Shown piece after piece: positions 16,807-46,112 of a stretch of 64,000 nucleotides of DNA. This DNA comes from an uncultured Nitrospirota bacterium. GTDB lineage: Bacteria > Nitrospinota > Nitrospinia > CAJXCL01. The stretch lies in NCBI GenBank assembly GCA_913051775.1, contig CAJXCL010000005.1, forward strand, positions 5,499 through 69,498. The letters are read 5' to 3'. A program made the position numbers and the translations under genes. Numbering within the stretch: the first letter of the stretch is position 1; every line of letters starts with the position of its first letter. Under the pieces are notes generated by a model. The model was not told where the DNA came from and made no database searches. It saw only the letters and a list, made by a program, of their open reading frames with translations.

Positions 16807-16903
16807 GCCATCCATGGCCTCAACCCTTCGGGCGGCTTTCCTTCGGAGATTGCTCATTTCGCTTTTCTTTGCCTAACCGTGGTTGCGGCCCTGCCGCGCT
16901 GCG
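16807..16903 (+). repeat. Dispersed structured repeat family 1, copy A
   Basis: GCCATCCATGGCCTCAACCCTTCGGGCGGCTTTCCTTCGGAG...GTGGTTGCGGCCCTGCCGCGCTGCG shares 70-85% identity, in blocks, with copies at 26237, 26650(rc), 29797(rc), 42510 and 46005(rc). Confidence 0.7.
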
Positions 16904-16920
16904 ATAAATAATTATCTGTT

Positions 16921-17244
16921 TTATCTTATTAAATAATATGGTTCTTTAATGGATTCACCTTTGCATAGGGGGCATTTCCCGGGTTTACTTATTCTTTCCC
17001 TCTTTTTGAAGATAAAGCTGCATTTCTTGCAAGTGGCAGGGTCAACGACCATCTTAAGATTATCCCTTAATATTGATTTCTTAATATGTTCGAGGTGCGC
17101 GGAAACTTCTTTCTCAGAAATCCGGACATAGCCGGATATTTCCTTCACGGTCAGAGTCTGTTCCTTGAGAAAGGAAACAATTTCCTTTCTTGCGGTCTCA
17201 TGCCTTTCCGGGGGAATAAACGGTTTTTTCGGTTTCTGATTCAT
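16921..17244 (-). CDS. Small transcriptional regulator with HTH and C-terminal CxxC..CxxC zinc ribbon (COG3357-like)
   Basis: TARKEIVSFLKEQTLTVKEISGYVRISEKEVSAHLEHI followed by CKKC...CPLC. Flanked by related 25-bp direct repeats (16880-16905 and 17321-17347). Confidence 0.6.
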   Translation of the reverse strand: MNQKPKKPFIPPERHETARKEIVSFLKEQTLTVKEISGYVRISEKEVSAHLEHIKKSILRDNLKMVVDPATCKKCSFIFKKRERISKPGKCPLCKGESIKEPYYLIR

Positions 17245-17320
17245 CCATCATCTATATTCGTTCTCTTTGTGACTTCAGAGTTTTCTGTAACACAAAACTG
17301 ATCGGAGCGATAGCTCCATT

Positions 17321-17347
17321 TGGTTGCGGCCCCTGACCACGCTGCTG
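17321..17347 (+). repeat. Partial copy of family-1 repeat terminus (GGTTGCGGCCCCTGACCACGCTGCTG)
   Basis: Matches the 3' end of copy A (GGTTGCGGCCCTGCCGCGCTGCG) on the other side of the regulator gene. Confidence 0.5.
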
Positions 17348-17403
17348 TTAAATAGAAGCCATTGAAAGATCACAAAAAATCTGATAGCTGAATGCTGTTT
17401 CCT

Positions 17404-17865
17404 TTACTTCTTTTCCTCAAGCCAAACTCTCCATTCATTAATCAATCTTTTATCAAAACCTTTTGATTCAGCTAAATTAAAGAGTTTTAATGCTTCTTCA
17501 AAATTTTTCAAAAGCGCAATGGAGCTAGCTAAATTATATATGATTTTCGGGTCATTTTTATTAAGTTGATGAGCAATCGAGAAATATTTATTTGCATTCA
17601 GATTATCCTGCTTATTAAAGTATGCCGTCCCCAATTCATTAAAAAAATAGGCGCTTTTATTTTTTTTATCTTCCACGTAAGGGTTTAGAAGGTCTATAAC
17701 CTGTTGATGTTTTTGTTGAGCATTTAAATTTTCCGCTTTCCATGACAGGGCATTATAATCCACATCTGAATTATCAGCATACACATTTTGAGGTACCCCG
17801 GCTATTATAAAAAATAATCCCGTTACAAGTATGACGGTAGATATAGTATTAAATTTCCATTGCAT
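17404..17865 (-). CDS. Secreted TPR-repeat protein
   Basis: N-terminal signal peptide plus TPR-like helices (ELGTAYFNKQDNLNANKYFSIAHQL). Confidence 0.5.
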   Translation of the reverse strand: MQWKFNTISTVILVTGLFFIIAGVPQNVYADNSDVDYNALSWKAENLNAQQKHQQVIDLLNPYVEDKKNKSAYFFNELGTAYFNKQDNLNANKYFSIAHQLNKNDPKIIYNLASSIALLKNFEEALKLFNLAESKGFDKRLINEWRVWLEEKK

Positions 17866-17884
17866 AGATTTTTATTCTTAGTTG

Positions 17885-18175
17885 TTAGCAGTTCTCGACA
17901 ACTGATTTTGTTCCCTTAATTTGCATCTTCTTTACCAGCGCTTCTTTTTCTGTTCTGCTTAACCCTTTTATTTTGTTCTCTCTCCTGGTTGCTTCTGACC
18001 GGGAGCACAGGGATTCCTGATAGACCAAGTTCACCGGGCATCGGGTTCGGGTATATCGTGCGCCGAGCAGACCACTGTTGTTATGTTCATCAATGCGCCG
18101 CTCAACATCATTGGTGATACCGGTGTAAAAACTTTGATCGGAACATCTGACAATGTAAACATACCAGTTACTCAT
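17885..18175 (-). CDS. GIY-YIG nuclease family protein (UPF0213)
   Basis: WYVYIVRCSDQSFYTGITNDVERRIDEHN...ARYT motif. Confidence 0.8.
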   Translation of the reverse strand: MSNWYVYIVRCSDQSFYTGITNDVERRIDEHNNSGLLGARYTRTRCPVNLVYQESLCSRSEATRRENKIKGLSRTEKEALVKKMQIKGTKSVVENC

Positions 18176-18366
18176 AGTTTCTCAAGACGCGAACCACGCA
18201 TTACGCTTCTCGTACTTTAACGATTTAAAGACTATAGCTAAGTTTAAATAATCAACAATAATTGTCAATTATAAACTGTCTATTACCCAAATCCAAAAAA
18301 TTTTTAGTTTTGACAGTGTTTTAATTTTATGTTAGAAATTGGACACACATTTGCGGAGAGGAATTA

Positions 18367-19491
18367 GTGGAATTTAAAATTGCACGTGAAGAATTTTTAA
18401 AAGGGCTTCAGAAAGTACAGGGCATTGTAGACACTAAAGGCGTAATGCCTATCCTGTCTAATATCTTAATTAAAACCCAACCAAGCGGCATTGATATCTT
18501 TGCTACAGATCTTGATATTGGCATTAGGGGGTCTTACGGGGCAAAGATAATCTCAAAGGGCAGCGCTACTGTTAATGGCCGGAAACTTCATGAAATTGTC
18601 AGGGAACTTCCTGATGAAGAAATTCACTTAAAGAGCGATAAAGAAAATAACTGGATAAACATAACATGTAAAAAATCGACTTTTAAAATTGCCTGCCTTC
18701 CGGCTGAGGAATACCCTGCATTTCCCGCTTACAAAGAGGAAAAAGACCTGTGTATTGAGATTAACCTTTTGAAAGAAATGCTCAGAAAAACTAATTTTTC
18801 CATTTCAACGGACGAAACCCGCTATACATTAAACGGTGTTTTGCTTGAGTCTGAAGGGAAAGACATTTCCATGGTAGGAACCGATGGACATCGCTTGGCT
18901 TGTATTAAAAAATCAAATGGGTTTGATAAAAAGGATAAGGTAGAAATAATTATTCCAAAAAAAGCGCAGGCGGAATTGTTAAAAATATTAGAGGCCGGCG
19001 ATTCTGATCAAGGTAACGGAAAAAAGACCATCAACATTTCTGTTGAAAAAAACCATGCGGCATTTAAAGTGGATAAAATGATTTTAGTAACCCGGCTGAT
19101 CGATGGTCGTTTCCCTAATTACCGCCAGGTAATTCCGGAGGATAATAACAACAATGTTGTTATTGATTCTGAACTTTTTCTTCATGCCCTGAGGCGAGTC
19201 GCGATTTTGGCGGATGAGAAATCCAGGATGGTAAAGTTTGGGGTGCAAAAAAACCTAATGACACTTGTTTCGGATAATTCAGAACTCGGAGAAGCCAGAG
19301 AAGAGATTGATGTTGAGTATAAAGGAAATGACATAACTATCGGCCTTAATGCCAAGTATGTCATGGATATTTTAAATGTCATTAACGTAGAAAAGATCGT
19401 CTTTAAATTAAAAGACGCTGATAGTTCATGCCTGATAACTCCCACCGATAATGAAAATTACAGATGTATCGTAATGCCAATGAGAATATGA
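18367..19491 (+). CDS. dnaN: DNA polymerase III beta sliding clamp
   Basis: Three-domain beta clamp, 374 aa, GTG start. No dnaA upstream. Confidence 0.9.
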   Translation: MEFKIAREEFLKGLQKVQGIVDTKGVMPILSNILIKTQPSGIDIFATDLDIGIRGSYGAKIISKGSATVNGRKLHEIVRELPDEEIHLKSDKENNWINITCKKSTFKIACLPAEEYPAFPAYKEEKDLCIEINLLKEMLRKTNFSISTDETRYTLNGVLLESEGKDISMVGTDGHRLACIKKSNGFDKKDKVEIIIPKKAQAELLKILEAGDSDQGNGKKTINISVEKNHAAFKVDKMILVTRLIDGRFPNYRQVIPEDNNNNVVIDSELFLHALRRVAILADEKSRMVKFGVQKNLMTLVSDNSELGEAREEIDVEYKGNDITIGLNAKYVMDILNVINVEKIVFKLKDADSSCLITPTDNENYRCIVMPMRI

Positions 19492-19539
19492 CATATTTGC
19501 GGCGTTTCCGAAAAAAGCGTCTCCACAAAAAAAGATAAC

Positions 19540-20393
19540 CGTTATTCTTCTTTATTTTCTCATCCTTCAAGCTTCTGTTTTCCTGTCTCAAACACAAATC
19601 GACAAAACAAGAACCCGTTACAGCAAAATTGAAGATATGAAGTATCTTCCATCCGGACAATTTTTAAAGGGAGCTGCTTTAGCATACGATGAACTTTTGC
19701 CGATTATTTATGGATCAAAGCAATAGTTTATTTTGGTGAGCATTTCAAGACCGATAAATCTTGCCGATGGTTTTATCATCTTCTGGATGTTGTTTCAACG
19801 CTGGATCCTTACTTTGAATCTGCTTATGAAATTGGAGGCGTGACCCTTGCCTATTGAGAAAAAGATGAAAACCTGAGCATTAAACTTCTTAAAAAAGGAA
19901 TGACCAATGTTCCTAAAACTCATGAACGTGATTGGAGAATTCTTTTTTTCTTGGCTATAATTACATGGATAATAAAAAAGATTTTGCCACTGCCACGTAT
20001 TACCTGGAAGAAGCCATCAAATAACCGGGATACCCGCGATATCTTCCGTTTCTGGTTGCTCGCCTTCATTCCAATACCAAAGATCCTGAAATTGCCATTA
20101 AATTCTTAAAGGAGATTTATCGTTCAACAAAAAATGAAGAAGCAAAGAAATATATAATAAAAAGAATCAATGAAATAGTAGTGGAGAGAGATATTCTCAT
20201 TCTCGAAGATATGCGGAATCAATATCACAAAAAAATCGGTTCATACCCATCGAATATTGGAGAGTTAATTTCAGCGGGATTCTTAAAAGAAATACCCCGA
20301 GAACCATTCGGAAAAAAATATTTTATCAAAGAAGATCATTCCATTCACAGTTCTGTTGTTAAAAAAAGAATGGAATTATTTATTGATTAAAAT
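19540..20393 (+). pseudogene. Degraded gene of unknown function (possibly TPR-like), with multiple frameshifts
   Basis: Protein-like reading segments switch between all three + frames: TRTRYSKIEDMKYLPSGQFLKGAALAYDELLPIIYGSKQ*, LDPYFESAYEIGGVTLAY*, GYNYMDNKKDFATATYYLEEAIK*, EIAIKFLKEIYRSTKNEEAKKYIIKRINEIVVERDILILEDMRNQ.... Confidence 0.4.
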
Positions 20394-20442
20394 CATAAAA
20401 GGGCAAGGAATATCTATCACTGCCAATAAACGGTGAACTTTT

Positions 20443-21126
20443 TAATCGCCTGTCGGAACAATGCTAAATTCGCGCACACAATCCATTTTATTCAAAGTTT
20501 CGGCCAGTTTCTGAAACTTATCTGTTTTTTTCGACCAGATAGTCATCTGGTATTGAAAGGATTTCCCTTTCCCCTCAAGATGATAGCTAAAATTGCTACA
20601 GGTAACATTGTGATTATTTATTACTTCATATAATTCTTATGCTGATATGGATTCATTACGCAAAAAGCGTATTGAGAGCCTTCCAAAGTAAAGAGATGGA
20701 ATCAAATCCTCAATCCATCGAAACAAAGACAGTATTCCTAATGTCATCAAAAAAGCTACTGCGGCCGGGAAGTAAAAACCTATTCCAATAATGATACCGA
20801 TTGAAGCTGTCATCCAAGTAGAAGCGGCAGTCGTCAAACCGCGTATAGCTAAATTTTCTTTTATTATCGCGCCGGCGCCAAGAAAACCAATACCTGCCAT
20901 AATGCCCTGCGCCATACGCGTCAGATCAATCCTTATTGTCTCCATGTGCTCATCAGTCACAAACTCCCATTGATTCACAGAAAATAACATCAAAAGGGTA
21001 GAAGAGACAAGTGTGTGTTCGAAAGCCGGCCGGACGCCCATGGTAGGAACGCTCAAGGCCAATAAGCCACCCGGCAAATAGAGCAAAAATCAGTCGAAGA
21101 ATCGTTTCTAAATATTCGGTTCCCAT
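20443..21126 (-). pseudogene. mgtC: MgtC/SapB-family membrane protein gene with at least 2 frameshifts
   Basis: The true N-terminus MGTEYLETILRLIFALFAGWLIGLERSYHGRPAGFRTH is in one frame. A 1-nt shift in an ACACACAC run leads to LVSSTLLM...GIGFLGAG (ORF 20637..21086). The C-terminal ACT-like part YHLEGKGKSFQYQMTIWSK...VREFSIVPTGD lies in a third frame. Confidence 0.6.
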
Positions 21127-21216
21127 GAAGATACAAGTTCCCTAAATTACCTATTGATGCTGAGGCACATTAATTACACCGGAAATGTAGATATCTACTA
21201 GTTATATCAGGATGGG

Positions 21217-22161
21217 CTAACGATTTCGAGGCTTTACACTATGAGTTGTGGATTCGTCAGCATTTCTGGCACATCGAAAACCAATGTTTGGAAGTTTCGT
21301 GTCTGGAGATAAAGGATGGCGAAATGTGGTTCGTGCATTTTCAAGGATATTTTTCCATGAGCCCCCGCGAAGAACTCTATATTGTTTTTGAAACCGAACA
21401 TCAAGGTCCAAATTGTTTTTATAAGGCAAATACAGGCTGTCGGTCCATTCCCAAACATTTCCCGCCATGTCAAAAACTCCAAAAACACTTGCCCCCTGTG
21501 GAAAACTTCCTACCGGAACAAGACCGGCAGGGTTCTCCGCATTTGATTGAGATTCTTCATTTTCAAGGATACTTGCCGCGTTTTTTCTTGAAGAATCGCC
21601 CCATGGCCATTTTACTGGCTGTGTACCCCGGGCGGCTTTTTCCCATTCAGTCTCTGTTGGAAGTCGTTTCCCTGCCCATTTACAGTATTTTTTTGCTTCT
21701 TGCCATGTAATGCCAGTAACAGGACAAAGATCGCACTCTGAGGCAGGATAGCTTTCATACTGATTGTCAAATAGTTTGTACTGAGCATTTGTTATTTCGT
21801 ATATATCAATAAAAAACGCCGGTACAAATACCCTTGCGGCAGGTCTTTCATTTTTTTCCCCGAGGTTATCACCCATAGTAAAATTACCGCCTTGCAAGTA
21901 AGCCATATCAGAACCATCTTTTTTATTAAAATAAGTTGGCAATATAGCTGGTAATCCGGGAATAATTTTTTTAACTTTTTTCTTTCTTGGTTCAGGTTCC
22001 TTGATGATTTCTTCTTTTGATGGTTTCTTTATTATTACTTTAGGGGGTTTTTTGCGCTTTTTTGTCGGAACTATTTTGGCGCAGGAGATTGGAAAAACTA
22101 ATATCATTATTAAAGCAAAATATTTAATATATTTTTTATTCATGAAGACTTCTCTAAACAA
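21217..22161 (-). CDS. Formylglycine-generating enzyme (FGE/SUMF1) family lipoprotein
   Basis: GNVWEWT, RGGSW, GFRCAR motifs. N-terminal lipoprotein signal (LVFPISCAK). Confidence 0.8.
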   Translation of the reverse strand: MFREVFMNKKYIKYFALIMILVFPISCAKIVPTKKRKKPPKVIIKKPSKEEIIKEPEPRKKKVKKIIPGLPAILPTYFNKKDGSDMAYLQGGNFTMGDNLGEKNERPAARVFVPAFFIDIYEITNAQYKLFDNQYESYPASECDLCPVTGITWQEAKKYCKWAGKRLPTETEWEKAARGTQPVKWPWGDSSRKNAASILENEESQSNAENPAGLVPVGSFPQGASVFGVFDMAGNVWEWTDSLYLPYKNNLDLDVRFQKQYRVLRGGSWKNILENARTTFRHPLSPDTKLPNIGFRCARNADESTTHSVKPRNR

Positions 22162-23008: not shown

Positions 23009-23262
23009 GGGATGTGTTAAAAGTTCGTCTTAAAATATTTTAGCGGCTTTGGCTGCTCGACGAATTAATATATAACATAACGCAACGAAGCTGCAATAAA
23101 AGGATTTGCCTTTGAAATAAACTGAGGGGGAAGAGTGGCCAACGAAAACCCCGGGAGAGGTGAAACGCTAATAGCCAGGGGTATAAACCCCTGGGACAAA
23201 GGTTAAAAACAAATCATAGTCCTTAAAGGGCAAAGCAAATAGCTAACATCTAATCTAAAACC

Positions 23263-23295
23263 TATATTTTTCTTTTGCAGTCAAAAGGAGACCTG
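23263..23295 (+). terminator. Hairpin AAAGG-agacctga-CCTTT followed by T8
   Basis: Stem-loop plus T-run on the + strand in a 430-bp spacer with no annotated + gene upstream. A CCAGGGG-tataaa-CCCCTGG hairpin lies at 23192-23211. Confidence 0.3.
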
Positions 23296-23444
23296 ACCTT
23301 TTTTTTGGTGTCGTTTCTCGATTCCAAGTTGAAAATAATTTTTCGTGTCTTTCGTGATTTTCGTGGTTTGAAGGAACCACTGCGTTTGAAGCTCCCTTCA
23401 GCAAAGCTGAGCTTATCTCTGCAAGACCACAGGGAATGAGCTCA

Positions 23445-25537: not shown

Positions 25538-25559
25538 TAAATGTTTCACGTGAAACATT
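25538..25559. terminator. Perfect 22-bp palindrome AAATGTTTCACGTGAAACATTT followed by T-run; bidirectional terminator or operator
   Basis: Perfect inverted repeat around a CACGTG core, immediately 3' of the uppP remnant. A second copy of the core palindrome is at 26519-26536. Confidence 0.45.
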
Positions 25560-26110
25560 TATTTTTTAACTCCACAAAATTAAGAGCAGCCCATCCGATG
25601 ATCCAGCAATAAGGCGCAAAAATGTGCAATTGTCCTTTTTTGACAATAAACAGAAGCAACTTCAAGGAGAAGTATCCTACTGCAAATGCTAAAACAGTGC
25701 CCATAATCGTTGCTGGAAAGAAAATCATCGGATCAGATAAATCTTTCAAAACAAGCATCTCGGCCCCAAAAATGGCCGAGATTGATAGCAGAAAAGAGTA
25801 GCGTGCTGCCATTTCACGGTTTAGTCCCAAAAATATTCCTCTACAGCAATGGTTGCGCCGGATTTTGATATTCCGGGCATAACAGCAAGTCCCTAACTAT
25901 TCCAATCAACAAAGCCTTTTTCATTGGGATATCAGTAGTTCCGTCTTTTTTGATCCGATGCGTGCTCACAGCAGCAGCCCGGTAATTAGCAGCATGGCAC
26001 CAATAATTGCAGATGAAAATATTTTGTCTGCTCCTTTACTCAACAGAAGCCCGATAATTGCGGTAGGAATCGACCCTATAACGATCATCTGAGCAATTTT
26101 TTTCGGCATT
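25546..26110 (-). pseudogene. uppP: Undecaprenyl-diphosphatase remnant: N-terminally truncated and with at least 3 frameshifts
   Basis: Reverse-strand segments IGSIPTAIIGLLL...AMLLITGLLL*, ALLIGIVQ, GLAVMPGISKSGATIA and GIFLGLNREMAARYSFLLSISAIFGAEML lie in different frames. The first ~80 aa are absent. Confidence 0.65.
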
Positions 26111-26236
26111 TACATAGATATTGGCAAAAGAGACCTCTTTTTTTGATAATGATTTGAAAAAGTGAAAAAGAGAGACGGTAATAGAGCGAATTTCCTTCTA
26201 AAAAAAATGACAACTGCCGCTAACGTTCCTATGTGA

Positions 26237-26352
26237 GCGCTGGAGTGGAAGCCCCTTTTGATTTCTGTCATCCCTGGACTCAACCCTTTGGGCAGCTCAT
26301 GCCTCGTTATCCAATTTGGTTTTCCTTACCAAATTGTGGTTGCGCAGCCTTT
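26237..26352 (+). repeat. Dispersed structured repeat family 1, copy B (left arm of an inverted pair)
   Basis: GCGCTGGAGTGGAAGCCCCTTTTGATTTCTGTCATCCCTGGACTCAACCCTTTGGGC...CCAATTTGGttttccttaCCAAATTG (internal hairpin)...GGTTGCGCAGCC. Confidence 0.7.
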
Positions 26353-26518
26353 CCGTTTTATGAGATTATAAGCTTTAGCAAATTTTTTATATTCAAACAT
26401 AGCAAACCTGATAAGTCAAATGAATTGCAAGTGCTTTGCTCTACCAAGGAACCCTTTTCAATCAAATAACATCCATAATATCATAGTATTAATTCAGGAT
26501 TAGTTGCTTTAATCATCG

Positions 26519-26536
26519 AATGTTTCACGTGAAACA
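26519..26536. promoter_or_regulatory. Second copy of the ATGTTTCACGTGAAACAT palindrome
   Basis: Identical 18-bp core to 25540-25557, with similar 5' flank (TTGCTT..), located between repeat copies B and C. Confidence 0.4.
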
Positions 26537-26649
26537 TCATTATAGAAATATCTATGCTTCTTTTATCTGCATTGTAAGAAATTAAGTTCTCAAAAAAATT
26601 GCAAAAAAATCTCTTGCAATAGCAAAATTTTTAGTATAATTTCATAGGA

Positions 26650-26775
26650 ACGACCGGCGGAGTTGGAACAACCATTCGGCGTGAAAAGCCGGATTGGAAG
26701 GATTCCGAAGGAAAGCCACCCAGAGTGTTGAGTCCAGGGATGACAGAAATCAAAGGGAGCTTCCGCTGCGGCTAG
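26650..26775 (-). repeat. Dispersed structured repeat family 1, copy C (right arm, inverted relative to B)
   Basis: The reverse complement reads GCCGCAGCGGAAGCTCCCTTTGATTTCTGTCATCCCTGGACTCAACACTCTGGGTGGCTTTCCTTCGGAATCC..CAATCCGGCttttcacGCCGAATGG.., collinear with copy B. Confidence 0.7.
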
Positions 26776-26859: not shown

Positions 26860-27675
26860 ATGGGAAAGATAATTTGTATAGCTAACCAAAAAGGGGGCGT
26901 TGGGAAAACCACCACCGCCGTCAATCTTGCCGCTTCTCTTTCTATAGCAGATTTAAAGATATTGCTTGTTGATTCTGATCCACAGGGAAATGCCACCAGT
27001 GGAATGGGAATTTCAATCAATGGAAGCCCTACAATTTACAGCTCTTTAGTCGGCGATGAACCCCTTAGTAATATCATTATGGATACGGAACTGGACAATC
27101 TTTTTATCTGCCCGTCAAATATGGACTTAAGCGGGGCTGAAATTGAGCTGGTTGGAATGGAAAAAAGAGAATTCAGGCTAAAAAATTCCATTTCCTTTGT
27201 GAAGAATAATTATGATTTCATTATAATTGATTGTCCGCCTTCATTAGGTTTACTAACTTTAAATTCCCTGGTTGCGGCTGATTCTATAATCATTCCACTT
27301 CAAAGCGAATATTATGCGCTCGAAGGACTGGGGCACCTTTTAAAAACCGTTCAATTGGTGAAAAACAGTTTGAATCGTAATTTGTCTATAGAAGGGATTC
27401 TTTTGACTATGTTTGATTCCCGAACCGCTCTTTCATCAGATATATATGATGAAGCGAAAAAGCATTTTTGTAATATTTTGTTAAAGACTGTCATCCCTCG
27501 CAATGTCCGGCTCAGTGAAGCCCCAAGCTATGGTAAACCGATAATTTTTTATGACAATACCTCAAAAGGCGCTCATGCCTATTTAGATCTGGCAAAGGAA
27601 ATTATTTTCAATGCAAAGAAAAGCTTTAGGGAGAGGGCTGGAAGCGCTCATTCCCAAAACGAAAAATTTAACTGA
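26860..27675 (+). CDS. parA: Chromosome partitioning ATPase ParA/Soj
   Basis: KGGVGKTTTAVNLAASL deviant Walker A. Confidence 0.9.
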   Translation: MGKIICIANQKGGVGKTTTAVNLAASLSIADLKILLVDSDPQGNATSGMGISINGSPTIYSSLVGDEPLSNIIMDTELDNLFICPSNMDLSGAEIELVGMEKREFRLKNSISFVKNNYDFIIIDCPPSLGLLTLNSLVAADSIIIPLQSEYYALEGLGHLLKTVQLVKNSLNRNLSIEGILLTMFDSRTALSSDIYDEAKKHFCNILLKTVIPRNVRLSEAPSYGKPIIFYDNTSKGAHAYLDLAKEIIFNAKKSFRERAGSAHSQNEKFN

Positions 27676-28447
27676 TTCTTCAGGGATCATGCAGGTTCCT
27701 ATCGAAGACATTTTTCCGGGAAAAATGCAGCCCCGGAAAGACTTCGATGAAAAAAGCCTGAAAGATCTGGCTTCATCAATAAAAGAAAAGGGCATTTTAC
27801 AACCTCCAATTGTGCAGAGCAAAAATGACGGATATGAGCTGATAGCCGGGGAAAGGCGATGGAGAGCAGCGCAAATAGCCGGACTCAGTAAAATCCCTGT
27901 AATAATTAAAGATCTATCGGGTTCAGAAGCTCTGGAAGTAGCTTTAATAGAAAATATTCAGAGAAAAGATCTGAATCCCATAGAGGAGGCCTCGGTATAT
28001 AAAAGATTAATTGATGATTTTAATCTCACCCAGGAAACTCTTTCGAAAAGGGTTGGAAAAGACCGCTCATCTTTAGCCAACTACCTCCGTTTATTAAAGC
28101 TTCCTCGACTTATTAAGCAGGATTTAGTTAATGGTGCTCTTTCGATGGGACATGCAAGGGCTTTGCTGGCTCTATTCTTGCCCGGGAAACTCTTTGAGGT
28201 CAGAGATTCTGTGGTTAAAAAGGGGCTGTCTGTCCGTGCAACTGAAGCTTTAATAAAAAGAATGAATAATCCCCAAAAGAAACCTGACAAAAAATCAAAA
28301 AATGTTTTTATCGTGGATTTAGAAAATAAACTTCAGAAATCTTTTGGAACTCGTGTTAAAATAAAAACATCTAATAAAGGCGGAAAAATTGAAATTTCTT
28401 TTTTTTCCAATAATGACCTTAATAGAATTATAAAAATAATAAGCTAA
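27611..28447 (+). CDS. parB: Chromosome partitioning protein ParB/Spo0J
   Basis: ALGRGLEALIP, LIAGERRWRAAQIAG, HTH. Overlaps the parA 3' end by 65 nt. Confidence 0.9.
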   Translation: MQRKALGRGLEALIPKTKNLTDSSGIMQVPIEDIFPGKMQPRKDFDEKSLKDLASSIKEKGILQPPIVQSKNDGYELIAGERRWRAAQIAGLSKIPVIIKDLSGSEALEVALIENIQRKDLNPIEEASVYKRLIDDFNLTQETLSKRVGKDRSSLANYLRLLKLPRLIKQDLVNGALSMGHARALLALFLPGKLFEVRDSVVKKGLSVRATEALIKRMNNPQKKPDKKSKNVFIVDLENKLQKSFGTRVKIKTSNKGGKIEISFFSNNDLNRIIKIIS

Positions 28448-28472
28448 ATAACCCTGCTTGGGAGAGTAGATT

Positions 28473-28901
28473 ATGGGGAAAAGTGAGTTTGAAGGAAAAG
28501 AAGTAAAGGCTTTTTTAGGAGAAGGCACAAAATTTAAGGGAGTATTAAAATTTGACGGCACTGTCAGGTTAGATGGATTTCTCGAAGGTGAAATTATTAC
28601 GAATGATACTTTGATCATCGGTGAGAAGGCGCACATTCTCGCAGAATTATCCACCGGCACTATAATAATCCTGGGAAAAATTGAAGGGAATATCTCTGCG
28701 TCAAAAAAAATAGAAATCAGAGCAAAAAGTCAACTTATTGGAAATATAAAAACCCCTGTTCTTTTTATTGAGGAAGGCGCGTCTTTCGAAGGCCAGTGCG
28801 AGATGTTGGGCAAAGAAAATAAAAAAGTTATGAGTATTGCAAGTAAAGAACTTCCTGAACCTGAAGAAGATAACTTTCCCGAAGAAACTGTTACTGCCTG
28901 A
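28473..28901 (+). CDS. Bactofilin (CcmA/DUF583) cytoskeletal protein
   Basis: Beta-helical repeat pattern FKGVLKFDGTVRLDGFLEGEIITNDTLIIGEKAHILAEL...IEGNISAS. Confidence 0.8.
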   Translation: MGKSEFEGKEVKAFLGEGTKFKGVLKFDGTVRLDGFLEGEIITNDTLIIGEKAHILAELSTGTIIILGKIEGNISASKKIEIRAKSQLIGNIKTPVLFIEEGASFEGQCEMLGKENKKVMSIASKELPEPEEDNFPEETVTA

Positions 28902-29784: not shown

Positions 29785-29796
29785 CCACATCATAAT

Positions 29797-29865
29797 GCAG
29801 CGTAGACGCAACCACAATTCGGTAAGGAAAGCCACCCGAAGGGTTGAGGCCATGGATGGCAGAGC
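29797..29865 (-). repeat. Dispersed structured repeat family 1, short copy D
   Basis: The reverse complement GCCATCCATGGCCTCAACCCTTCGGGTGGCTTTCCTTACCGAATTGTGGTTGCG is a short version lacking one hairpin arm. It lies between the two DUF1538 paralogs. Confidence 0.65.
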
Positions 29866-30069
29866 TAAGCTCAGCTTTACCGATAATCAAAAATGATTTG
29901 CTGAGCTAAACTTTGTCACTAAGACACAAAGAGAATGATGACAAAGGCGTTGATGAAATACTGTTTTTTCTTGATCCTTGATTCAGAAGTTAGCGGTTAA
30001 TAAACTAATAGATAGTTAAAAATTTTTTCTGAGAAACAACGATTTTACATAGTAATAATATATAAAAAA

Positions 30070-31520: not shown

Positions 31521-31559
31521 TTTAGCGGAGCGGAGCCGCAACTAAAAAATCCACCCGCC

Positions 31560-31616
31560 CTTTTTAATCATTCCTTCTTAGGAGTGATTAAAAAGGGTGG
31601 ATAAAGAACTTTAAAG
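31560..31616 (+). promoter_or_regulatory. Long imperfect inverted repeat between the PII-like and CBS genes
   Basis: TCCACCCGCCCTTTTTAATCATTCC-ttcttag-GGAGTGATTAAAAAGGGTGGA: ~21-bp arms. Intra-operon stem-loop, possibly an attenuator or protein-binding site. Confidence 0.3.
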
Positions 31617-38678: not shown

Positions 38679-38754
38679 TGTTGATTAAATGATAAAAAAT
38701 TATTAGACAAGATTACAGGATAAACAAATCGTTTAGTTATTCAAATTGCTGACC

Positions 38755-39741: not shown

Positions 39742-39785
39742 TTGTGATAACTCCCAAGAAATTAGTTGAAATACGAAAAGATCAG

Positions 39786-39811
39786 GGACTCCATAATACT
39801 GTCCCCTGACA
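39786..39811 (-). terminator. Hairpin CAGGGAC-N11-GTCCCCTG downstream of the hydrolase gene
   Basis: GC-rich stem in an AT-rich spacer, followed (minus sense) by T-rich sequence. Confidence 0.3.
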
Positions 39812-39834
39812 CCCAGTCCCCTGCCCCTTGACCC

Positions 39835-40647: not shown

Positions 40648-40730
40648 TTATCAAATAATTAATCTAACTTTCAGCGAAAATAGCATTTAGAGAATATGAA
40701 CAGATTAAAAGGATGAATATGGAAAATTGA

Positions 40731-42227
40731 TCAATCCATTAAGCTTTTTGTTGCCGGAAGGTATTGGCTAAAAGATTTTCGCCCTTTATCTTTTAGAAAG
40801 GATTCCAGAAATACCAGAGAAGCGCCGCCTCCTGTGGAAATAAAAAAATTTGTTACAAAATAGTTCACAAGCGTGTAAAGGTCATGATCAGAAAATTTAA
40901 TCTCAAAGAGTTTGTGATTAATATTGTTTCCTATTACTTTATTTAATTCTTTTAAGAACTCTTTCTCAATACTGGAAAGATTGAACTGTTGAACAATGGC
41001 GGCAGTATCCCCTCCCCCTATTACAACCAAAGAATCTTTGTCCCGTATGCATTTATTAAAAAGAGATTGGGCTATCCCAACAGAACCCTTCGCATACCCT
41101 TTATTGGTAGGATGATCAAAAGCTCCTAGAGGGCCGTTCCAGAAGATATTTTTTACATTATTATTAAGCAGGATTTCTGAAAATTTCTTTATGGAGTTTG
41201 GCCCGATATCTAATTGCAGCTCTTTGTTAAAATCAGGGGCCTCTGATATTGAAAACTTTGGAGAATCGAAATCCGATGAAACTTTATAGTCCACAGGGAA
41301 GATGATCTCAACTCCCTTATCCTCGGCCATTTTAATGATTTTACCGGCCAGCATGACCTCTTCATGGATGTTATTCTCCTTCCCCGCTTTTGCTTTCAAC
41401 TTAGCCGGGATTTTTATTTGATCTTTTTTCAAGTCCCTGTCTAAAAGAAAGGCATTCACCATTTTTCCACCAAGTATAATACGGCCAATACCGGATTGAA
41501 CAAACTGCTTTATTATACTTATTTTATCTGACACTTTTGCTCCGCCGACTATAAAAACGGTATGTTCAGGTTCTTTAATAATCCTTTGCGCCAGTTCACC
41601 AAGTCGTAAAATCTCTTCGTTTAGGAGCATGCCCGCTACAGCAAGCTTGTTCCTTTTTTTCATAAGATTGGGAAGCTTTATGATGCTCCTGGTCTCTCTA
41701 TGGCTGGTTCCAAAAGCACAGTTAATATATACATCACATATATTGGCCAAATCCTTTATAAATTCATCCCTGTATGAAGTTTCTCTTTTCAGAAGATAAC
41801 GCAAGTTCGGCAGGAACTTAATTCCGCCAAGAGGCAACTGGTTCTTTTTAACCATCTCGATTGAATGCTTCAATTGGGAATCCATAGATTCCGGAGGGAA
41901 AACGATATAAGAATCCTCATATTCTTTTTTTAAAAGGGTTTCGAAATGAGAGCAAACAAACTGCAGATTAAATATTCCGTCCCAACTGTTATCACTCAGA
42001 TGTTTATGAGGTCTGCCAAGGTGAGATCCGATAATGATCCTACAGTTTCCCTGTGTGAGTTCATGTATTCTTTTAAAGCATCTATCCAAAAACCTCCTGA
42101 TGCGCTCATCGTCCGTGACCAGAAATCTACCCGGTGTATCTTTTTTGAGCGGTACATTGAAATCCGTGCGTATAAATATGGTTTTGTGTAAAAGGTCTTT
42201 GGCTTTTAACTTTTCAAGCAGCTTCAT
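40731..42227 (-). CDS. pgk: Phosphoglycerate kinase (long form, 498 aa with insertions)
   Basis: RTDFNVPL, IIGSHLGRP, WNGPLGAFD, GGGDTAAIV, STGGGASLVFLE. Confidence 0.85.
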   Translation of the reverse strand: MKLLEKLKAKDLLHKTIFIRTDFNVPLKKDTPGRFLVTDDERIRRFLDRCFKRIHELTQGNCRIIIGSHLGRPHKHLSDNSWDGIFNLQFVCSHFETLLKKEYEDSYIVFPPESMDSQLKHSIEMVKKNQLPLGGIKFLPNLRYLLKRETSYRDEFIKDLANICDVYINCAFGTSHRETRSIIKLPNLMKKRNKLAVAGMLLNEEILRLGELAQRIIKEPEHTVFIVGGAKVSDKISIIKQFVQSGIGRIILGGKMVNAFLLDRDLKKDQIKIPAKLKAKAGKENNIHEEVMLAGKIIKMAEDKGVEIIFPVDYKVSSDFDSPKFSISEAPDFNKELQLDIGPNSIKKFSEILLNNNVKNIFWNGPLGAFDHPTNKGYAKGSVGIAQSLFNKCIRDKDSLVVIGGGDTAAIVQQFNLSSIEKEFLKELNKVIGNNINHKLFEIKFSDHDLYTLVNYFVTNFFISTGGGASLVFLESFLKDKGRKSFSQYLPATKSLMD

Positions 42228-42407
42228 TGTTATTTTTTGTGAATTTTATGCAATATTATTAATACCCTTTTGCTAGATAGATTAGCCCTCGCTATTATAT
42301 TAAAGCATTATGCTTTTGTAAAATATTTAACCGATAATTTGAAGTTTCCCGTAGCAAAGCTGAGGCTCAAAGCCAAGCTTAACTTCGTAGCTTTGCAAAG
42401 TTTTTGA

Positions 42408-42492
42408 CACACACTCCATCCCAAATAGAAACCCCTCTTGTCAGAAGGGAATTCTCTCCCTAAACTCCCCCTTAAAAAAGGGGGATGCAGGG
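42408..42492 (-). repeat. Dispersed repeat family 2 (contains CCCCCTTAAAAAAGGGGG hairpin)
   Basis: The reverse complement TGCATCCCCCTTTTTTTAAGGGGGAGTTTAGGGAGAGAATTCCCTTCTGACAAGAGGGG matches 63826-63925 at about 80% (CCCCCTTTTTTAAGGGGGAGTTTGGAGTGAGTATTTCCCTCTATCAAGAAGGGTG). Confidence 0.6.
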
Positions 42493-42509
42493 GGTTGTAA
42501 TTGGTTTTT

Positions 42510-42605
42510 GTCCATCCCTGGACCCAACCCTTCGAGCGGTCTTCCTTCTGGATTCGTCCAATTCGGCTTTCCATGCCGAATTGTGATTGCGGCAACTTGC
42601 CGCTT
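42510..42605 (+). repeat. Dispersed structured repeat family 1, copy E
   Basis: GTCCATCCCTGGACCCAACCCTTCGAGCGGTCTTCCTTCTGGATTCGTCCAATTCGGCtttccatGCCGAATTGTGATTGCGGCAACTTGCCGC; ~85% identical to the reverse complement of copy F. Confidence 0.75.
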
Positions 42606-42614
42606 TATGTTCTA

Positions 42615-44168
42615 ATGATAAAAAAAATGGAAATCCTTACTGCAAAAGAAATGAGAGAAGTCGACAGGAAATCCATAGAGGACTACGGCATCCCCGGGCC
42701 TGTCCTTATGGAAAACGCAGGAATTCAGACGGTTATTGCCCTTGAAGATAAGTTTAATAGCTTAACTCAAAAGAATGTCTCTGTTTTCGCCGGCAAGGGA
42801 AATAATGGTGGAGACGGGGCTGTAGTTGCAAGACATCTTTTTAATAAAAAAGTAAAGGTTGAAATATTTCTTTTTGCTAAAAAAGATGACACATCCCATG
42901 ATGCAAAAATCAATTTAGATTTAGCCCAGAAGATGGGGATTCCTATTCATGAAGTCGAGAGCCTCGACAAACTTAAAACCTTTAAAAGCCACCTGGCTCA
43001 TGCCCATATTTTTATCGACGCCCTCTTGGGAACCGGGATAACCCCGCCGGTAAAAGGAGTTTTGCAGTCTGTTATTTCATTTTTAAATGATCTCAATAAA
43101 TTTACTTTAGCAATCGACATTCCGTCCGGTTTGAGTTCTGATCATGGAAATGTGGAAGGAAAGACTTTTAAGGCTGATATGACTGTCACATTCTGCCGTC
43201 CTAAAAGATGCCATTTCTTGTATCCTGCGGCAGATCTGGTTGGCGAATTAAAAGTCGTTGATATCAGCATTCCCGATAAAATTGTTAGAAATGAAAAGAT
43301 AAAAGTTCATACGATCGATCGAAATGATATTTGTTTTTTATTTCAAGAAAGAAAACGGTCTTCCCATAAGGGTACATACGGTCACTTGCTCGTTATTGGC
43401 GGATCTGCTGGGAAGGGGGGGGCAGCGGCCATAGCAGGTCTATCCGCTTTGAGGATAGGAACAGGTTTGGTCACCTTAGCGGTTCCGCAATCAGTCAATT
43501 CGTCCATTGAAATGAGCCCCATTGAAGTAATGAGCATCCCTCTTCCTGAGACCCAAGAGGGAAGTATTGATATTGCGGCAAAAGATAAACTTCTTGAGTC
43601 AATAAATGGCAAATCATCCGTATTAATAGGGCCTGGATTATCTACTCAACAGGAAACCATTGAGCTATTGCTTATGATTATTCCTGAAATTAAAGTACCG
43701 CTTTTAATAGACGCGGATGGCTTGAACTGTTTAGCAGATCATTTAGAAATTTTAAAAAAAGTAAAAGGCCAGGTCATTATTACTCCCCATCCGGGAGAAA
43801 TGTCGAGGCTGACACGAAAAACGGTCAAAGACGTGCAGGCAGATAGAATCGGAATAGCTCAAAAATTTGCAGTGGATTATAACCTTATTGTTGTTTTAAA
43901 AGGAGCCGGTACAATTATCGCTTTACCTGATGGCAGCACTTTTATAAATACAACAGGAAATCCGGGTATGGCTTCAGCAGGAACAGGGGATGTCCTGGCG
44001 GGCATGGCAGCAGGGTTATTAGCTCAAAATATTACTCCTGCCGACGCATCAACAAAAGCAGCGGTCTATCTTCATGGCTTTGCCGGCGACAGGATTTCAC
44101 AAGAGAAAGGCCAGGTTTCCCTTATTGCAAGCGATCTGATTGAAGTTATTCCTTCAATTTTGAAATAG
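42615..44168 (+). CDS. nnr: Bifunctional NAD(P)H-hydrate repair enzyme (epimerase + ADP-dependent dehydratase)
   Basis: YjeF-N (GKGNNGGDG) and YjeF-C (GPGL, GTGDVLAG) domains. The listed ORF start at 42501 lies inside the repeat. The first plausible ATG is at 42615. Confidence 0.85.
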   Translation: MIKKMEILTAKEMREVDRKSIEDYGIPGPVLMENAGIQTVIALEDKFNSLTQKNVSVFAGKGNNGGDGAVVARHLFNKKVKVEIFLFAKKDDTSHDAKINLDLAQKMGIPIHEVESLDKLKTFKSHLAHAHIFIDALLGTGITPPVKGVLQSVISFLNDLNKFTLAIDIPSGLSSDHGNVEGKTFKADMTVTFCRPKRCHFLYPAADLVGELKVVDISIPDKIVRNEKIKVHTIDRNDICFLFQERKRSSHKGTYGHLLVIGGSAGKGGAAAIAGLSALRIGTGLVTLAVPQSVNSSIEMSPIEVMSIPLPETQEGSIDIAAKDKLLESINGKSSVLIGPGLSTQQETIELLLMIIPEIKVPLLIDADGLNCLADHLEILKKVKGQVIITPHPGEMSRLTRKTVKDVQADRIGIAQKFAVDYNLIVVLKGAGTIIALPDGSTFINTTGNPGMASAGTGDVLAGMAAGLLAQNITPADASTKAAVYLHGFAGDRISQEKGQVSLIASDLIEVIPSILK

Positions 44169-44289
44169 AAACTATCGTTTCTCCGAAGAGGACACTGGGA
44201 AAATAACTCCCGGAGAAAGAACTTAAATCTGCTCCTTAACGGTGAAAAAGGACTGGTGTATTTCTCTCACCTTGCGAGTTTGGCGAGCA

Positions 44290-44520
44290 TAATCATTTAG
44301 AAAACCTTCCCTGTTTTTTTCCCATCTTCACTTGAGTGCCCCATTCTGAATGCCAGTTTGGACAATTTCTCGTTCGTCTCCGGGAGTTTGCTTTCAGAAC
44401 GTTCGTGTACAATTCTGATACCATTAATTACACGGCGTAAAAAATCATAGGATTCTTTGAGTTTGTTATAGCGTTCCAGAGATAGAAGACCGATACGTAC
44501 TGCTTCTTTATTGATAGACG
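44290..44520 (-). pseudogene. Orphan C-terminal fragment of a GlnE/GlnD-like nucleotidyltransferase
   Basis: Reverse-strand SDTSINKEAVRIGLLSLERYNKLKESYDFLRRVINGIRIVHERSESKLPETNEKLSKLAFRMG resembles the Y.FLRRVENRLR..H.LP..LA.RLG motif of GlnE/GlnD regulatory domains. There is no start; a stop precedes it. Confidence 0.35.
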
Positions 44521-44730
44521 TATCTGATTAACTGGATTTATATCATGTTAATCCTGTAATCCTGTCTAATATTTTTTAATGGGTTACAAAAACTTTGCTC
44601 AAAAAATATTCCGCAGATTAGTAATACAACACAACGAAGGCGCAGTCCCAAAACGACCATAAAAGTACAAAGGTCACCAAGAAAAATCTTTGAATATTCC
44701 AAGAAATATGATAGTTTCTAAGATTTGTTC

Positions 44731-44759
44731 TTGACAATTGCATGGTGTCAGTTATAAAT
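44731..44759 (+). promoter_or_regulatory. Sigma70-like promoter upstream of pntAA
   Basis: TTGACA (44731-44736), 17-bp spacer, TATAAA (44754-44759), 90 nt upstream of the start. Confidence 0.4.
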
Positions 44760-44848
44760 TGCTTTTTCCTTCTTTCTTTAGAACTAACAGTATTAGTGTA
44801 TTTAGCATAGGGTTTCTAATCTGAAACAATTATTAGGATAGCAAAGTT

Positions 44849-46000
44849 ATGATTGTTGGTGTACCAAAAGAAACATTTCCAGGCGAGCAGCGAGTTGCCT
44901 TAATTCCACAAAACATATCAAATCTCACAAAGACCGGTTTCGAGGTTTTAGTAGAATCAAAAGCAGGAGGAAGTTCTGGTTTTAGCGACTCTGAATACAC
45001 CGATAAGGGCGCAAAGATTACAGGGAACAGAAAAGAACTTTTTTCTAAAGCTGATGTAATCCTGCAGGTTCGTGGGTTCGGCACTAATCCCGATAAAGGA
45101 AAATCCGATCTTGTACTGATGAAAGCTGGTCAAATTGTCGTTGGTCTTCATGAACCACTTGCCGCGATTGATGCCATAAAAATATTAGCAAATCGCAAAG
45201 TTACCGCGTTTGCTATGGAACTTATACCGCGAATTACTCGTGCCCAGAGCATGGATGTCCTTTCTTCTATGGCTACAATAGCAGGTTATAAATCTGTTAT
45301 GATAGCCGCGGAATCACTCCCCAAGATGTTCCCCATGTTAATGACTGCTGCCGGAACAACAGCGCCTGCCCAGGTGTTTGTGGTCGGGGCTGGAGTTGCG
45401 GGACTTCAGGCGATTGCAACAGCGAAACGTCTTGGATCTGTGGTGAAAGCCTACGATGTGCGCCCTGCGGTTAAAGAACAGATTGAAAGCCTGGGCGCCA
45501 AGTTCGTGGAACTGCCTGTTGACGCCAAGGAATCTGAAGACAGCGGGGGATACGCGATAGAAATGGATGAATCCTTTTATAAACGGCAGCGCGAGATGAT
45601 GACCAAAATCGTAGAGGAAAGCGATGTTGTGATCACTACCGCCATGATACCGGGCAAAAAAGCTCCGGTATTAATTGCAGCAGGTATGGTCAAAAAAATG
45701 CATCATGGTTCGATAATAGTAGATCTTGCAGCCGAATCGGGAGGAAATTGTGAACTAACAAAATCAGGAAAAACAGTGGTGACAACCGGGGTAACTATTA
45801 TTGGTCCCGTAAATATTGCTTCTACCATACCGTATCATGCAAGCCAGATGTATTCAAAAAACATTACAACGTTCCTTCTACACATTATAAAAGAGGGAAA
45901 GTTGAGTGATGATGCTGATGATGAAATCTTAACTAATACGATGGTGACAAAAGACGGAACAATCGTGAATAAACTTGTAAAAGAACTTGCCGGCGCTTGA
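44849..46000 (+). CDS. pntA: NAD(P) transhydrogenase subunit alpha part 1 (dI)
   Basis: Alanine dehydrogenase/PNT fold, GAGVAGLQAI NAD-binding motif. Confidence 0.9.
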   Translation: MIVGVPKETFPGEQRVALIPQNISNLTKTGFEVLVESKAGGSSGFSDSEYTDKGAKITGNRKELFSKADVILQVRGFGTNPDKGKSDLVLMKAGQIVVGLHEPLAAIDAIKILANRKVTAFAMELIPRITRAQSMDVLSSMATIAGYKSVMIAAESLPKMFPMLMTAAGTTAPAQVFVVGAGVAGLQAIATAKRLGSVVKAYDVRPAVKEQIESLGAKFVELPVDAKESEDSGGYAIEMDESFYKRQREMMTKIVEESDVVITTAMIPGKKAPVLIAAGMVKKMHHGSIIVDLAAESGGNCELTKSGKTVVTTGVTIIGPVNIASTIPYHASQMYSKNITTFLLHIIKEGKLSDDADDEILTNTMVTKDGTIVNKLVKELAGA

Positions 46001-46004
46001 TATT

Positions 46005-46112
46005 TAACCGTAGAGCGGCAGGGCCACATCCACAATTCGGCAGGAAAGCCGAATTGGACGGATTCCAAAGGAAGGCCGTCCGAAGGGTTGAGGCCGGGGA
46101 TGGCCGAAATCG
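46005..46112 (-). repeat. Dispersed structured repeat family 1, copy F, inside the pntAA-pntAB spacer
   Basis: The reverse complement reads CGATTTCGGCCATCCCCGGCCTCAACCCTTCGGACGGCCTTCCTTTGGAATCCGTCCAATTCGGCtttcctGCCGAATTGTGGATGTGGCCCTGCCGCTCTAC. Confidence 0.75.

Follow-up and report, generated by a model that had tools for sequence, protein, structure and literature searches.

A 64,000-nucleotide stretch of contig CAJXCL010000005.1 from an uncultured marine Nitrospinota bacterium (the window, meaning the whole stretch analysed) carries a real, lineage-specific and previously undescribed family of hairpin-rich non-coding repeats, which no described family matched in any search made. The family is dispersed in at least five species, is gained and lost, consists of separable parts nested in one another, forms tandem arrays, preserves its base pairing and is indifferent to orientation. 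The best-supported reading of the repeats, and one that we consider probable, is that of a non-autonomous, mosaic family of mobile repeats in the intergenic DNA of AT-rich marine Nitrospinota. [quoted passage not shown] The general class holds, as the repeats are dispersed, structured, non-coding, gained and lost and arranged in BIME-like mosaics, but the defining features of REP and Correia elements are absent.

Scanning the window with a degenerate core pattern (CATCCNNGGNCYCAACCCTTYGRRYRG, at most three mismatches) returned six matches, at positions 16809, 26269, 26716 (minus strand), 29832 (minus strand), 42513 and 46076 (minus strand), here called copies A to F in this order, whereas 100 dinucleotide-preserving shuffles of the window gave an expectation of 0.00. 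The same six copies were recovered by repeat search, by an nhmmer profile and by a covariance model. Six copies and one partial copy had been listed in the preliminary description, and the family is indeed present at all seven of these sites. The ordered sequence blocks claimed for them are present and come into register in a multiple alignment, and the copies are, as described, GC-richer than their surroundings (G+C of 0.48-0.58 compared with about 0.38 for the window). The count itself was too low, since the 64-kb window holds eight members in total (copies A-H).

Outside the window, searching 185,579 species-representative genomes for the core pattern yielded 40 loci, nearly all in three uncultured Nitrospinota species represented by metagenome-assembled genomes (MAGs), and many of these matches sit at contig ends. 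A further related species, represented by L047 (loci and contigs outside the window carry L numbers), also has the family; its PntAA is 87% identical. The covariance model built here found 52 copies in 327 kb of window and locus sequence. A match in the 'delta proteobacterium' L038 was rejected as a chance or coding match in an unrelated MAG. The preliminary description had raised the prospect that the similarity might be confined to these loci and derive from a single duplicated gene fragment; this is ruled out because the family is present, beside unrelated flanking genes, at some 45 additional loci that belong to at least four further Nitrospinota species. With six copies found where none was expected, no open reading frames (ORFs) within the elements and no coding potential common to the copies, chance similarity or remnants of one gene fragment confined to the region are extremely improbable. 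Searching the window against Rfam 15 gave no match at the gathering score and no relevant one at E ≤ 1, the family was not matched among IMG/VR viral contigs, phage records or plasmid records, and the literature searched contained nothing linking Nitrospinota with MITEs, REPs or dispersed repeats.

Alignment of the copies revealed that the repeat is not the single element of 70-115 bp described at first, but a composite, in which a core is nested in a shell and further mini-modules are inserted. While the repeats are where they had been placed, their real length is about 130 nt (about 170 nt for copy F) once the terminal hairpins H5 and H3 are included. The core (~95 nt) consists of TGATTNCGG, hairpin P2 (GGCCA-UCCN-UGGCC), UCAACCCUUC, hairpin P3 (GGGYRG...CYRUCC, with an exchangeable apical hairpin as its tip), hairpin P4 (AAUUCGG-loop-CCGAAUU) and a final G-TGRTTNCGG, and the unpaired CUCAACCCUUC that follows P2 is nearly invariant. 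The shell (~100 nt) opens with (TTTAT)-A/G-NTA-TTACACTGTAAAAA and an AT-rich hairpin; a T-run and about 12 nt then lead on to H5 (a 5-bp stem with a GNNA-type loop), ATTTGGTTGCGG, H3 (a GC stem of 5-7 bp) and (C)TTTAT(G). The core of 'full' copies is placed at the shell junction ATTTG^GTTGCGG. Both parts also occur without the other: at least seven shells are coreless (copies G and H of the window and those at L027, L033, L036, L016 and L014), shell-less cores lie directly in unique sequence at L010, L022, L033, L041, L042 and L045, and cores form head-to-tail arrays at L013, L033 and L041.

The mini-modules add a further level of nesting. M2, a near-palindrome of 20 nt (CAAAGCTGAGCTTAGCTCTG), occurs 33 times, almost invariant, in at least six contexts, among them the position between the core CGG and CCATCC (copy D), the loop of the AT-rich shell hairpin and the interior of another insert. 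A 13-nt insert (CCCGCTNAGCGTG) occurs 17 times, each time between the two units of a 7-bp direct repeat whose sequence matches the surroundings, namely GCAAAGC within M2 and GCTCCGC or GCTTCGC within another module. P4 can also be interrupted, at AATT, by larger inserts of about 45-110 nt. Within one orthologous copy, L015 and L036 differ by at least four nested modules, while their flanks are 89% identical.

Comparison of orthologous sites demonstrated gain and loss of whole copies. In L046 and L047, whose PntAA is 87% identical, the pntAA-pntAB spacer lacks copy F. L047 carries a copy directly 3' of nnr, bounded on both sides by CGCTTTAT, at a site that is empty in the window and in L046. 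A copy in L020, together with other modules, is absent at window positions 7206-7313, where the flanks are 92% identical, and the filled site has TTTAT to its left and right. Other copies are shared between species: copy E and its counterpart at L029, from another species, are 87.6% identical, and those at L012 and L031 90.3%. Copy E and its paralogue F are only 81% identical, less than copy E and its orthologue (88%), and concerted evolution is therefore weak. Between near-identical strains, the sole structural difference over about 29 kb is a perfect 34-nt hairpin, CTGAAAATTTATGCTATTTTAGCAAAATTTTCAG, which is present in strain contig L126 and not in the window, directly 5' of shell G (after window position ~17300), and which is bounded by a CTGA direct repeat.

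The end sequences are suggestive of, but do not prove, insertion beside TTTAT(G). Most full copies end in H3 plus CTTTATG, with CTCTATG, CTCTGTG and CGCTGCG as transition variants. At the nine long-form 5' ends, TTACACTGTAAAAA starts about 3-4 nt after TTTAT, which is exact in five cases and has one mismatch in four, and the sequence upstream of this TTTAT is unrelated among copies. TTTAT or CGCTTTAT is found at both ends in L020, L047, L008 and L036, and other modules have repeats of 4, 7 and 9 bp. Many copies stand directly behind another small hairpin ending in CTTATG (ACAGCGGCTTATG followed by CAAAGC), and the 5' flank of copy B resembles the 3' end of copy C (CGTTCCTATG). Such pile-ups would be explained if each element regenerates TTTAT(G) at its own 3' end.

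Base pairing is preserved throughout the family. In the model-based alignment of the 52 copies, standard pairs fill 87.5% of cells, compared with 74.2% after shuffling of partners (none of 500 shuffles reached 87.5%) and 33-50% when partners were slid by 1-3 columns, and both sides have changed at 24 of the 34 pairs (219 cells). A structure-blind MAFFT alignment of 19 clean copies gave 87.9% paired cells against 82.5% in the shuffles, with 0 of 500 reaching the observed value, and changes on both sides at 14 pairs, where 7.2 were expected. In line with the preliminary description, the two halves of the P2 palindrome co-vary (GGCCA/TGGCC, GTCCA/TGGAC and GACCA/TGGTC among the 52 copies), as does the internal hairpin P4 (at one of its pairs CG in 23 copies, UA in 13 and AU in 2); the folding and covariance modelling that it had proposed led to a model that recovers the family and to pairing that covaries beyond controls. 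Its conclusion from this covariation, that selection acts on the structure, is plausible, yet it is not secured, because part of the signal is whole-module swapping, because the two strands fold with equal energy and because templated quasipalindrome correction could mimic compensatory change. Indeed, the P3/P4 signal is largely one of whole-hairpin replacement (for example AATTCGG/CCGAATT versus AATTTTACC/GGTAAAATT) rather than of independent point compensation.

Two pairings of longer range were rejected. A cloverleaf-like single fold closed by an outer stem, as suggested for copy F, has no covariation support for that stem, while the local hairpins H5 and H3 do; the 6-bp outer pairing GGGCGG...CCGCTT is complete in 9 of the 52 copies and does no better than with shuffled partners, 42 of 500 shuffles reaching the observed value. 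Pairing of CAACC with GGTTG is mismatched in copies E and F.

Strong pairing preservation with changes on both sides is also what a role at the RNA level would predict, in which the repeats serve as cis-acting structured modules or independent small RNAs (stabilisers, RNase processing sites or intrinsic terminators), a role that we consider unlikely. Of 48 copies, 44 keep a G.U pair in the P3 stem, and the modelled strand has 127 G.U against 53 A.C, although this excess arises in part from the alignment having been fitted to that strand, and minimum free energies of the two strands are equal (-44.4 versus -43.8 kcal/mol, p = 0.22). UUCG- and GNRA-like loops would suit an RNA, and copy F has a predicted RNA fold of -55 kcal/mol (z = -4.1), but folding is clearly better than that of shuffles in only two of the seven window copies and no better in the other five. 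H3 followed by UUUAU receives a terminator-like score in copy E, yet in this one of the seven window copies only, and since the scans picked nothing but the H3 of copy E and no promoter enrichment, terminator or promoter activity was rejected as a general function; the promoter scan, a prediction scan only, gave no support for copy E as the source of an nnr promoter. While the bcr-type repeats of the Bacillus cereus group are often parts of untranslated regions (UTRs) (PMC3446304), the Nitrospinota family shows no bias relative to transcription: in co-directional spacers 12 copies are sense and 12 antisense, nine more lie between divergent and seven between convergent genes, and no orientation is preferred. 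Orthologous copies are more conserved than four-fold degenerate sites, as an RNA under constraint would be; mosaic and decayed copies (A, D and G) are nevertheless tolerated, and no Rfam family is matched.

The same conservation above the neutral rate at orthologous sites, together with the fixation of all copies in the population, could point instead to DNA sites that serve the host by binding a nucleoid or topology protein, as REP/BIME sequences do for gyrase, IHF and Pol I, that are retained for the needs of the chromosome and that were spread by recombination instead of transposition. The invariant unpaired CTCAACCCTTCGG and the palindromic P2 (GGCCATCCATGGCC) would fit such sites, and equal stability of the strands is compatible with recognition of a cruciform or duplex. 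As the presence of copies differs between close species, however, none of the sites can be essential; truncations, deletions or interruptions by modules affect many copies, one coincides with a destroyed gene, no regularity of spacing was seen, and nothing ties the elements to any protein. We regard this explanation as improbable.

Equally improbable in our judgement is that the seemingly compensatory changes and the nested 'insertions' are mutational by-products of palindromic DNA, arising from templated quasipalindrome correction, slippage stimulated by hairpins and gene conversion between copies, with a mobile mechanism needed only for the initial spread of a few master copies. The exchange of whole alternative hairpins that makes up most of the P3/P4 'covariation' is in keeping with such processes, as are the flanking direct repeats of varied length (4, 7 and 9 bp) and the deletion across a repeated TTTCCTT that copy D shares with L027, and the strain indel described above, a perfect hairpin with a 4-bp repeat, is a classic substrate of slipped-strand deletion. 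M2, near-identical in 33 copies and at least six unrelated contexts, and the 17 mini-inserts with their context-matching 7-bp repeats are nevertheless hard to obtain without a process of copying and insertion, and orthologues that are closer than paralogues (88% versus 81%) speak against strong concerted evolution.

In the mobile-repeat reading, an enzyme whose gene lies at another place in the genome would mobilise the elements in trans; it would recognise folded hairpins rather than a sequence and insert next to TTTAT(G). Candidates are a Y1/HUH enzyme (IS200/IS605 or similar to the REP-associated tyrosine transposase, RAYT) or a site-specific recombinase as proposed for bcr1. Effects on the host, such as transcript hairpins, weak terminators, the spacing of genes in operons or the disruption of uppP, would be by-products.

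Several observations weigh against this reading. No transposase, RAYT or recombinase was found in the ~1 Mb of window and locus sequence examined, nor any autonomous parent element or parent insertion sequence (IS). All-against-all BLASTP of flanking ORFs, in search of a recurrent transposase near the copies, gave orthologues only, and an IS608 TnpA query gave only a spurious match of 34 amino acids in the same ~1 Mb. MAGs, however, typically lose repeated IS copies. The flanking direct repeats vary in length (4, 5-8, 7 and 9 bp), which makes a single cut-and-paste enzyme an unlikely source, and some of the 'insertions' could instead have arisen when short repeats slipped or recombined with loss of the DNA between them, or through gene conversion among the copies. 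In DNA of 38% G+C, TTTAT is frequent, and the comparisons of filled and empty sites number only three, none of them between very close genomes for the whole element. Orthologous copies are more conserved (0.876 and 0.903) than four-fold degenerate sites (about 0.80; p = 0.049 and 0.0005, respectively), a hint of some constraint, which would not be expected if the elements were purely selfish. Moreover, whole copies A-F are fixed and unchanged in all strain contigs of a near-clonal population (99.9-100% identity), and current transposition of whole elements is thus not shown.

Within the window, copy A (16778-16908, plus strand; covariance-model match of 101.8 bits) is a core in a shell, with H5 at 16782-16794, P2 at 16806-16819, P3 at 16830-16855, a decayed P4 at 16856-16878 and H3 at 16885-16897; it lies 3' of an FKBP/SlyD-like gene, between convergent genes, and is identical in strain contig L126. 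Copy G (17296-17350, plus strand; shell profile E = 3e-12), taken at first for a partial copy at 17321-17347, is a complete coreless shell made up of H5 (GGAGC-GATA-GCTCC), the junction ATTTGGTTGCGG and a decayed H3. Copies B and C form an inverted pair 416 nt apart. Copy B (26238-26367, plus strand; 105.3 bits) is a core in a shell with a variant P3 and AATTTGG/CCAAATT as P4, and copy C (26643-26773, minus strand; 98.6 bits), also a core in a shell, is the most diverged (CAACAC for CAACCC) and lies 85 nt upstream of parA, pointing away from it. Copy D (29786-29889, minus strand; 42 bits), antisense between two DUF1538 genes, is a deletion derivative in which P3 and P4 are fused across the repeated TTTCCTT and the segment between them is lost, as in L027, and its M2 module (29860-29879) stands between TGATTATCGG (29880-29889) and CCATCC. 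Copy E (42501-42610, plus strand; 121.8 bits) comprises the core, H3 (GCGGCAACTTGCCGC) and CTTTATG, ends 17 nt before the nnr ATG and has its 5' hairpin H5 replaced by a different repeat (42402-42500). Copy F (46009-46177, minus strand; 133.1 bits), the full long form, has the order AT-rich hairpin (TTGTG-N9-CACAA, 46148-46166), T-run, H5, core and H3; it is antisense in the pntAA-pntAB spacer and is carried by all strain contigs of the same species. Copy H (60611-60703, minus strand; shell profile E = 5e-15), the eighth member and missed at first, is a coreless shell (TTACTACTCTGTAAAAGCTTGC..T9..GGAGCGGTAGCCCC ATTCGGTTGCGG AGCCTCTCCG TTTTAT) that fills a 118-nt spacer, in sense, between two co-directional genes. 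A related site at 23386-23440 on the plus strand, found by k-mer and M2 census, combines an M2-like CAGCAAAGCTGAGCTTATCTCTG with TTGAAGCTCCC, modules that are elsewhere nested within family copies.

The gene contexts named in the preliminary description were borne out by Pfam, which identified the FKBP/SlyD-like isomerase, two DUF1538 paralogues, Nnr (YjeF_N plus carbohydrate kinase) and PntAA with a 4TM PntAB. Two copies, D and F, are in antisense within gene pairs that resemble operons, whereas A and H have the sense orientation and E is found just 5' of nnr. All copies are outside intact genes, but the claim that all are intergenic needs qualification, as copy B replaces the missing N-terminal ~40 codons of a uppP/bacA pseudogene. 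This remnant (25546-26283, minus strand) consists of three out-of-frame fragments, covering Pfam BacA positions 41-74, 83-127 and 177-256, and its first ~40 codons are missing exactly at the site of copy B. Because all strain contigs show the same fragmentation, it is a real pseudogene rather than an assembly error. The orientations of the copies (+ + + / - - + - -) had suggested an origin of replication between B and C, beside parAB, in a region with origin-proximal-type genes (dnaN, 18367-19491; parA and parB, 26860-28447; bactofilin, 28473-28901) where the gene strand switches from minus to plus near 26 kb. No cluster of DnaA boxes was found in 25.8-26.9 kb and the GC skew merely follows the gene strand, and a replication-strand bias or nearby oriC was dropped.

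Other small repeats and features were observed in the same DNA. A second, unrelated repeat family, with C/G-run hairpins and the ends ACAACCCCC...GGGGGTTGT, occupies 42402-42500, 63836-63918 and 59451-59482; the member adjoining copy E on its 5' side is missing from the orthologous L029 site, and related copies occur in L044 and nested within L023. The perfect palindrome ATGTTTCACGTGAAACAT, which looks like a putative transcription-factor operator, is present twice, at 25541-25578, on the 3' side of the uppP remnant and upstream of a spore-photoproduct-lyase-like gene, and at 26500-26537, upstream of parA, where 270 bp of AT-rich DNA separate copies B and C. At window positions 7240-7300, an inserted hairpin of about 55 nt, GCTTTACCCTGCAAATGATTTCTAATCAATTAGGTATGCAGGGCAAACCTTTATGTTT, is absent from the orthologous L020 spacer (species ~92% identical). 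The module GC(G/A)CTGAGTTCGCTGAGAAAA recurs in different spacers, 3' of nnr and between pntAA and pntAB (L046 1120-1180 and 6160-6210; L047 320-345), and these genomes thus contain several further small repeat families. The sole Rfam match of the window with E < 1 (mir-5681, 24.8 bits, where the gathering score is 88) arose by chance from a long AT-rich hairpin with near-perfect pairing at 31544-31612 on the minus strand, which is probably a terminator between the P-II and CBS genes. An identical PntAA is encoded by contigs of many marine metagenomes as well as by NCBI MAGs. Contig L128 is 96.2% identical to window positions 44754-47976, with 121 mismatches, none of them within copy F, compared with 99.9-100% for the other strain contigs, and this stretch may be a recombined segment in pntB within an otherwise clonal global population.

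Among known systems, the closest in its ends is that of bcr1-bcr3, which are non-coding, structured, MITE-like intergenic elements of 100-400 bp that have no known transposase, are lineage-restricted, occur in tens of copies and many partials, often in UTRs and operon spacers, and have a mobility associated with a terminal TTTAT that is possibly duplicated on insertion (PMC6542083, PMC6199540, PMC3446304). The Nitrospinota long form is likewise bounded by TTTAT at both ends, with duplication of TTTAT resting on few filled/empty pairs. Since the hosts of bcr1-bcr3 (the B. cereus group) belong to another phylum, the likeness, drawn from descriptions only, is one of working alike and not of membership, and the Nitrospinota unit differs as a core in a shell with nested mini-modules. 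REP/BIME elements are mobilised by an enzyme that is encoded elsewhere and recognises folded single-stranded DNA (PMC2817692, PMC3116915, PMC3733652); REPs measure 20-40 bp and have a conserved GTAG or CGTC head (PMC3733652), and they alternate in orientation within BIMEs (PMC2817692). The family described here shares with them intergenic GC-richer hairpins, mosaics with short motifs and compensatory stem changes. Its units are larger, however (a core of ~95 nt, a shell of ~100 nt and composites of 130-170 nt with 3-5 hairpins), and lack a conserved GTAG/CGTC head, GTAG being present only in some loops of H5 (GGTA-G), which vary between GGAA, GGTA, TGAA, GATA, GGCA and GGTG. Its arrays are head-to-tail rather than alternating, B and C being the sole inverted pair, and no RAYT was found in the loci examined.

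Cyanobacterial small dispersed repeats, SDR4-6, were reportedly described by Elhai et al. in 2008. SDR5 targets the HIP1 palindrome. Measuring about 21-27 nt, the modules SDR4-6 become inserted at precise positions within other repeats and within one another (PMC4390886). The 20-nt M2 and the 13-nt insert with its 7-bp repeats behave alike, but differ in sequence and lineage, and their targets are hairpin loops and junctions of larger elements. A speculative view, to which we give a low but appreciable chance, joins these likenesses: the mini-modules of less than 35 nt (the 13-nt insert with context-matching repeats, the near-invariant 20-nt M2 with its at least six contexts and the strain-variable 34-nt hairpin) might be a second, non-cyanobacterial kind of ultra-small mobile DNA that inserts into hairpin loops and junctions in a structure-directed way, and the shell might share the bcr mechanism; or an invariant CUCAACCCUUCGG core might be host-selected on a mobile shell.

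Correia/NEMIS, ERIC, BOX and RUP elements are intergenic, measure about 100-170 bp, form long RNA hairpins and have side-effects on transcripts, ERIC with indel variants and BOX with A-Bn-C modules. Such families of small intergenic elements, including Correia/NEMIS of Neisseria, ERIC/IRU of enterobacteria, and BOX and RUP of the pneumococcus, have been reviewed (PMC3184786, PMC10969869). The Nitrospinota family resembles BOX in its modular composition, whereas membership of Correia/NEMIS, which are also characterised by an IHF site, was rejected, as the copies have no 26-bp terminal inverted repeats and no TA flanks and reside in Nitrospinota rather than Neisseria. Classical MITEs are bounded by terminal inverted repeats that are long, duplicate a fixed target (TA for Correia and ERIC) and can sometimes be traced to a recognisable parent IS. 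Like these, the family is small, non-coding, multi-copy and present or absent at orthologous sites, but its only terminal inverted repeat is the 6-bp GGGCGG/CCGCTT without covariation, and it forms a multi-hairpin array instead of one long hairpin. Palindrome-associated transposable elements (PATEs) derived from IS200/IS605 lack terminal inverted repeats, have subterminal hairpins recognised strand-specifically in single-stranded DNA and insert 3' of a 4-5-nt target without duplication. The layout TTTAT / ~18 nt / AT-rich hairpin ... H3 / TTTAT is compatible with this type, with few verified insertion sites; no TnpA (Y1) was found in the ~1 Mb examined, and no homology to known IS200/IS605 ends or, in Rfam, to their omega/HEARO RNAs. 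Integron attC sites are marked by R''/L''...L'/R' boxes (RYYYAAC...GTTRRRY) and lie in arrays 3' of co-oriented cassette ORFs. They were rejected as a candidate, as the copies are scattered among housekeeping genes in both orientations and GTTAGGC occurs only in a few 5' flanks, at the wrong position. By analogy, the repeats appear to add a new family to a kind already known, and they behave like the 'junk' mobile repeats of E. coli, Neisseria and B. cereus.

In the dark ocean, nitrite is oxidised mainly by marine Nitrospinota, for which fragmented MAGs and single-cell genomes are almost the only source of knowledge. The high density of the repeats (eight members in 64 kb), together with the many matches at contig ends, explains contig breaks. 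The family is a lineage marker and a source of strain-typing loci, and its copies need to be masked when small RNAs, terminators or promoters are predicted in these genomes. To our knowledge, new intergenic repeat families are in general a common finding; what goes beyond the routine here is the nesting of a core in a shell, the ultra-small modules, the bcr-like TTTAT and the hairpin polymorphism at strain level in a clonal lineage. The Nitrospinota repeats thus offer an independent comparative system both for the movement of TTTAT-associated, bcr-type repeats that lack a known transposase and for the precise nesting of very small hairpin modules within other repeats.

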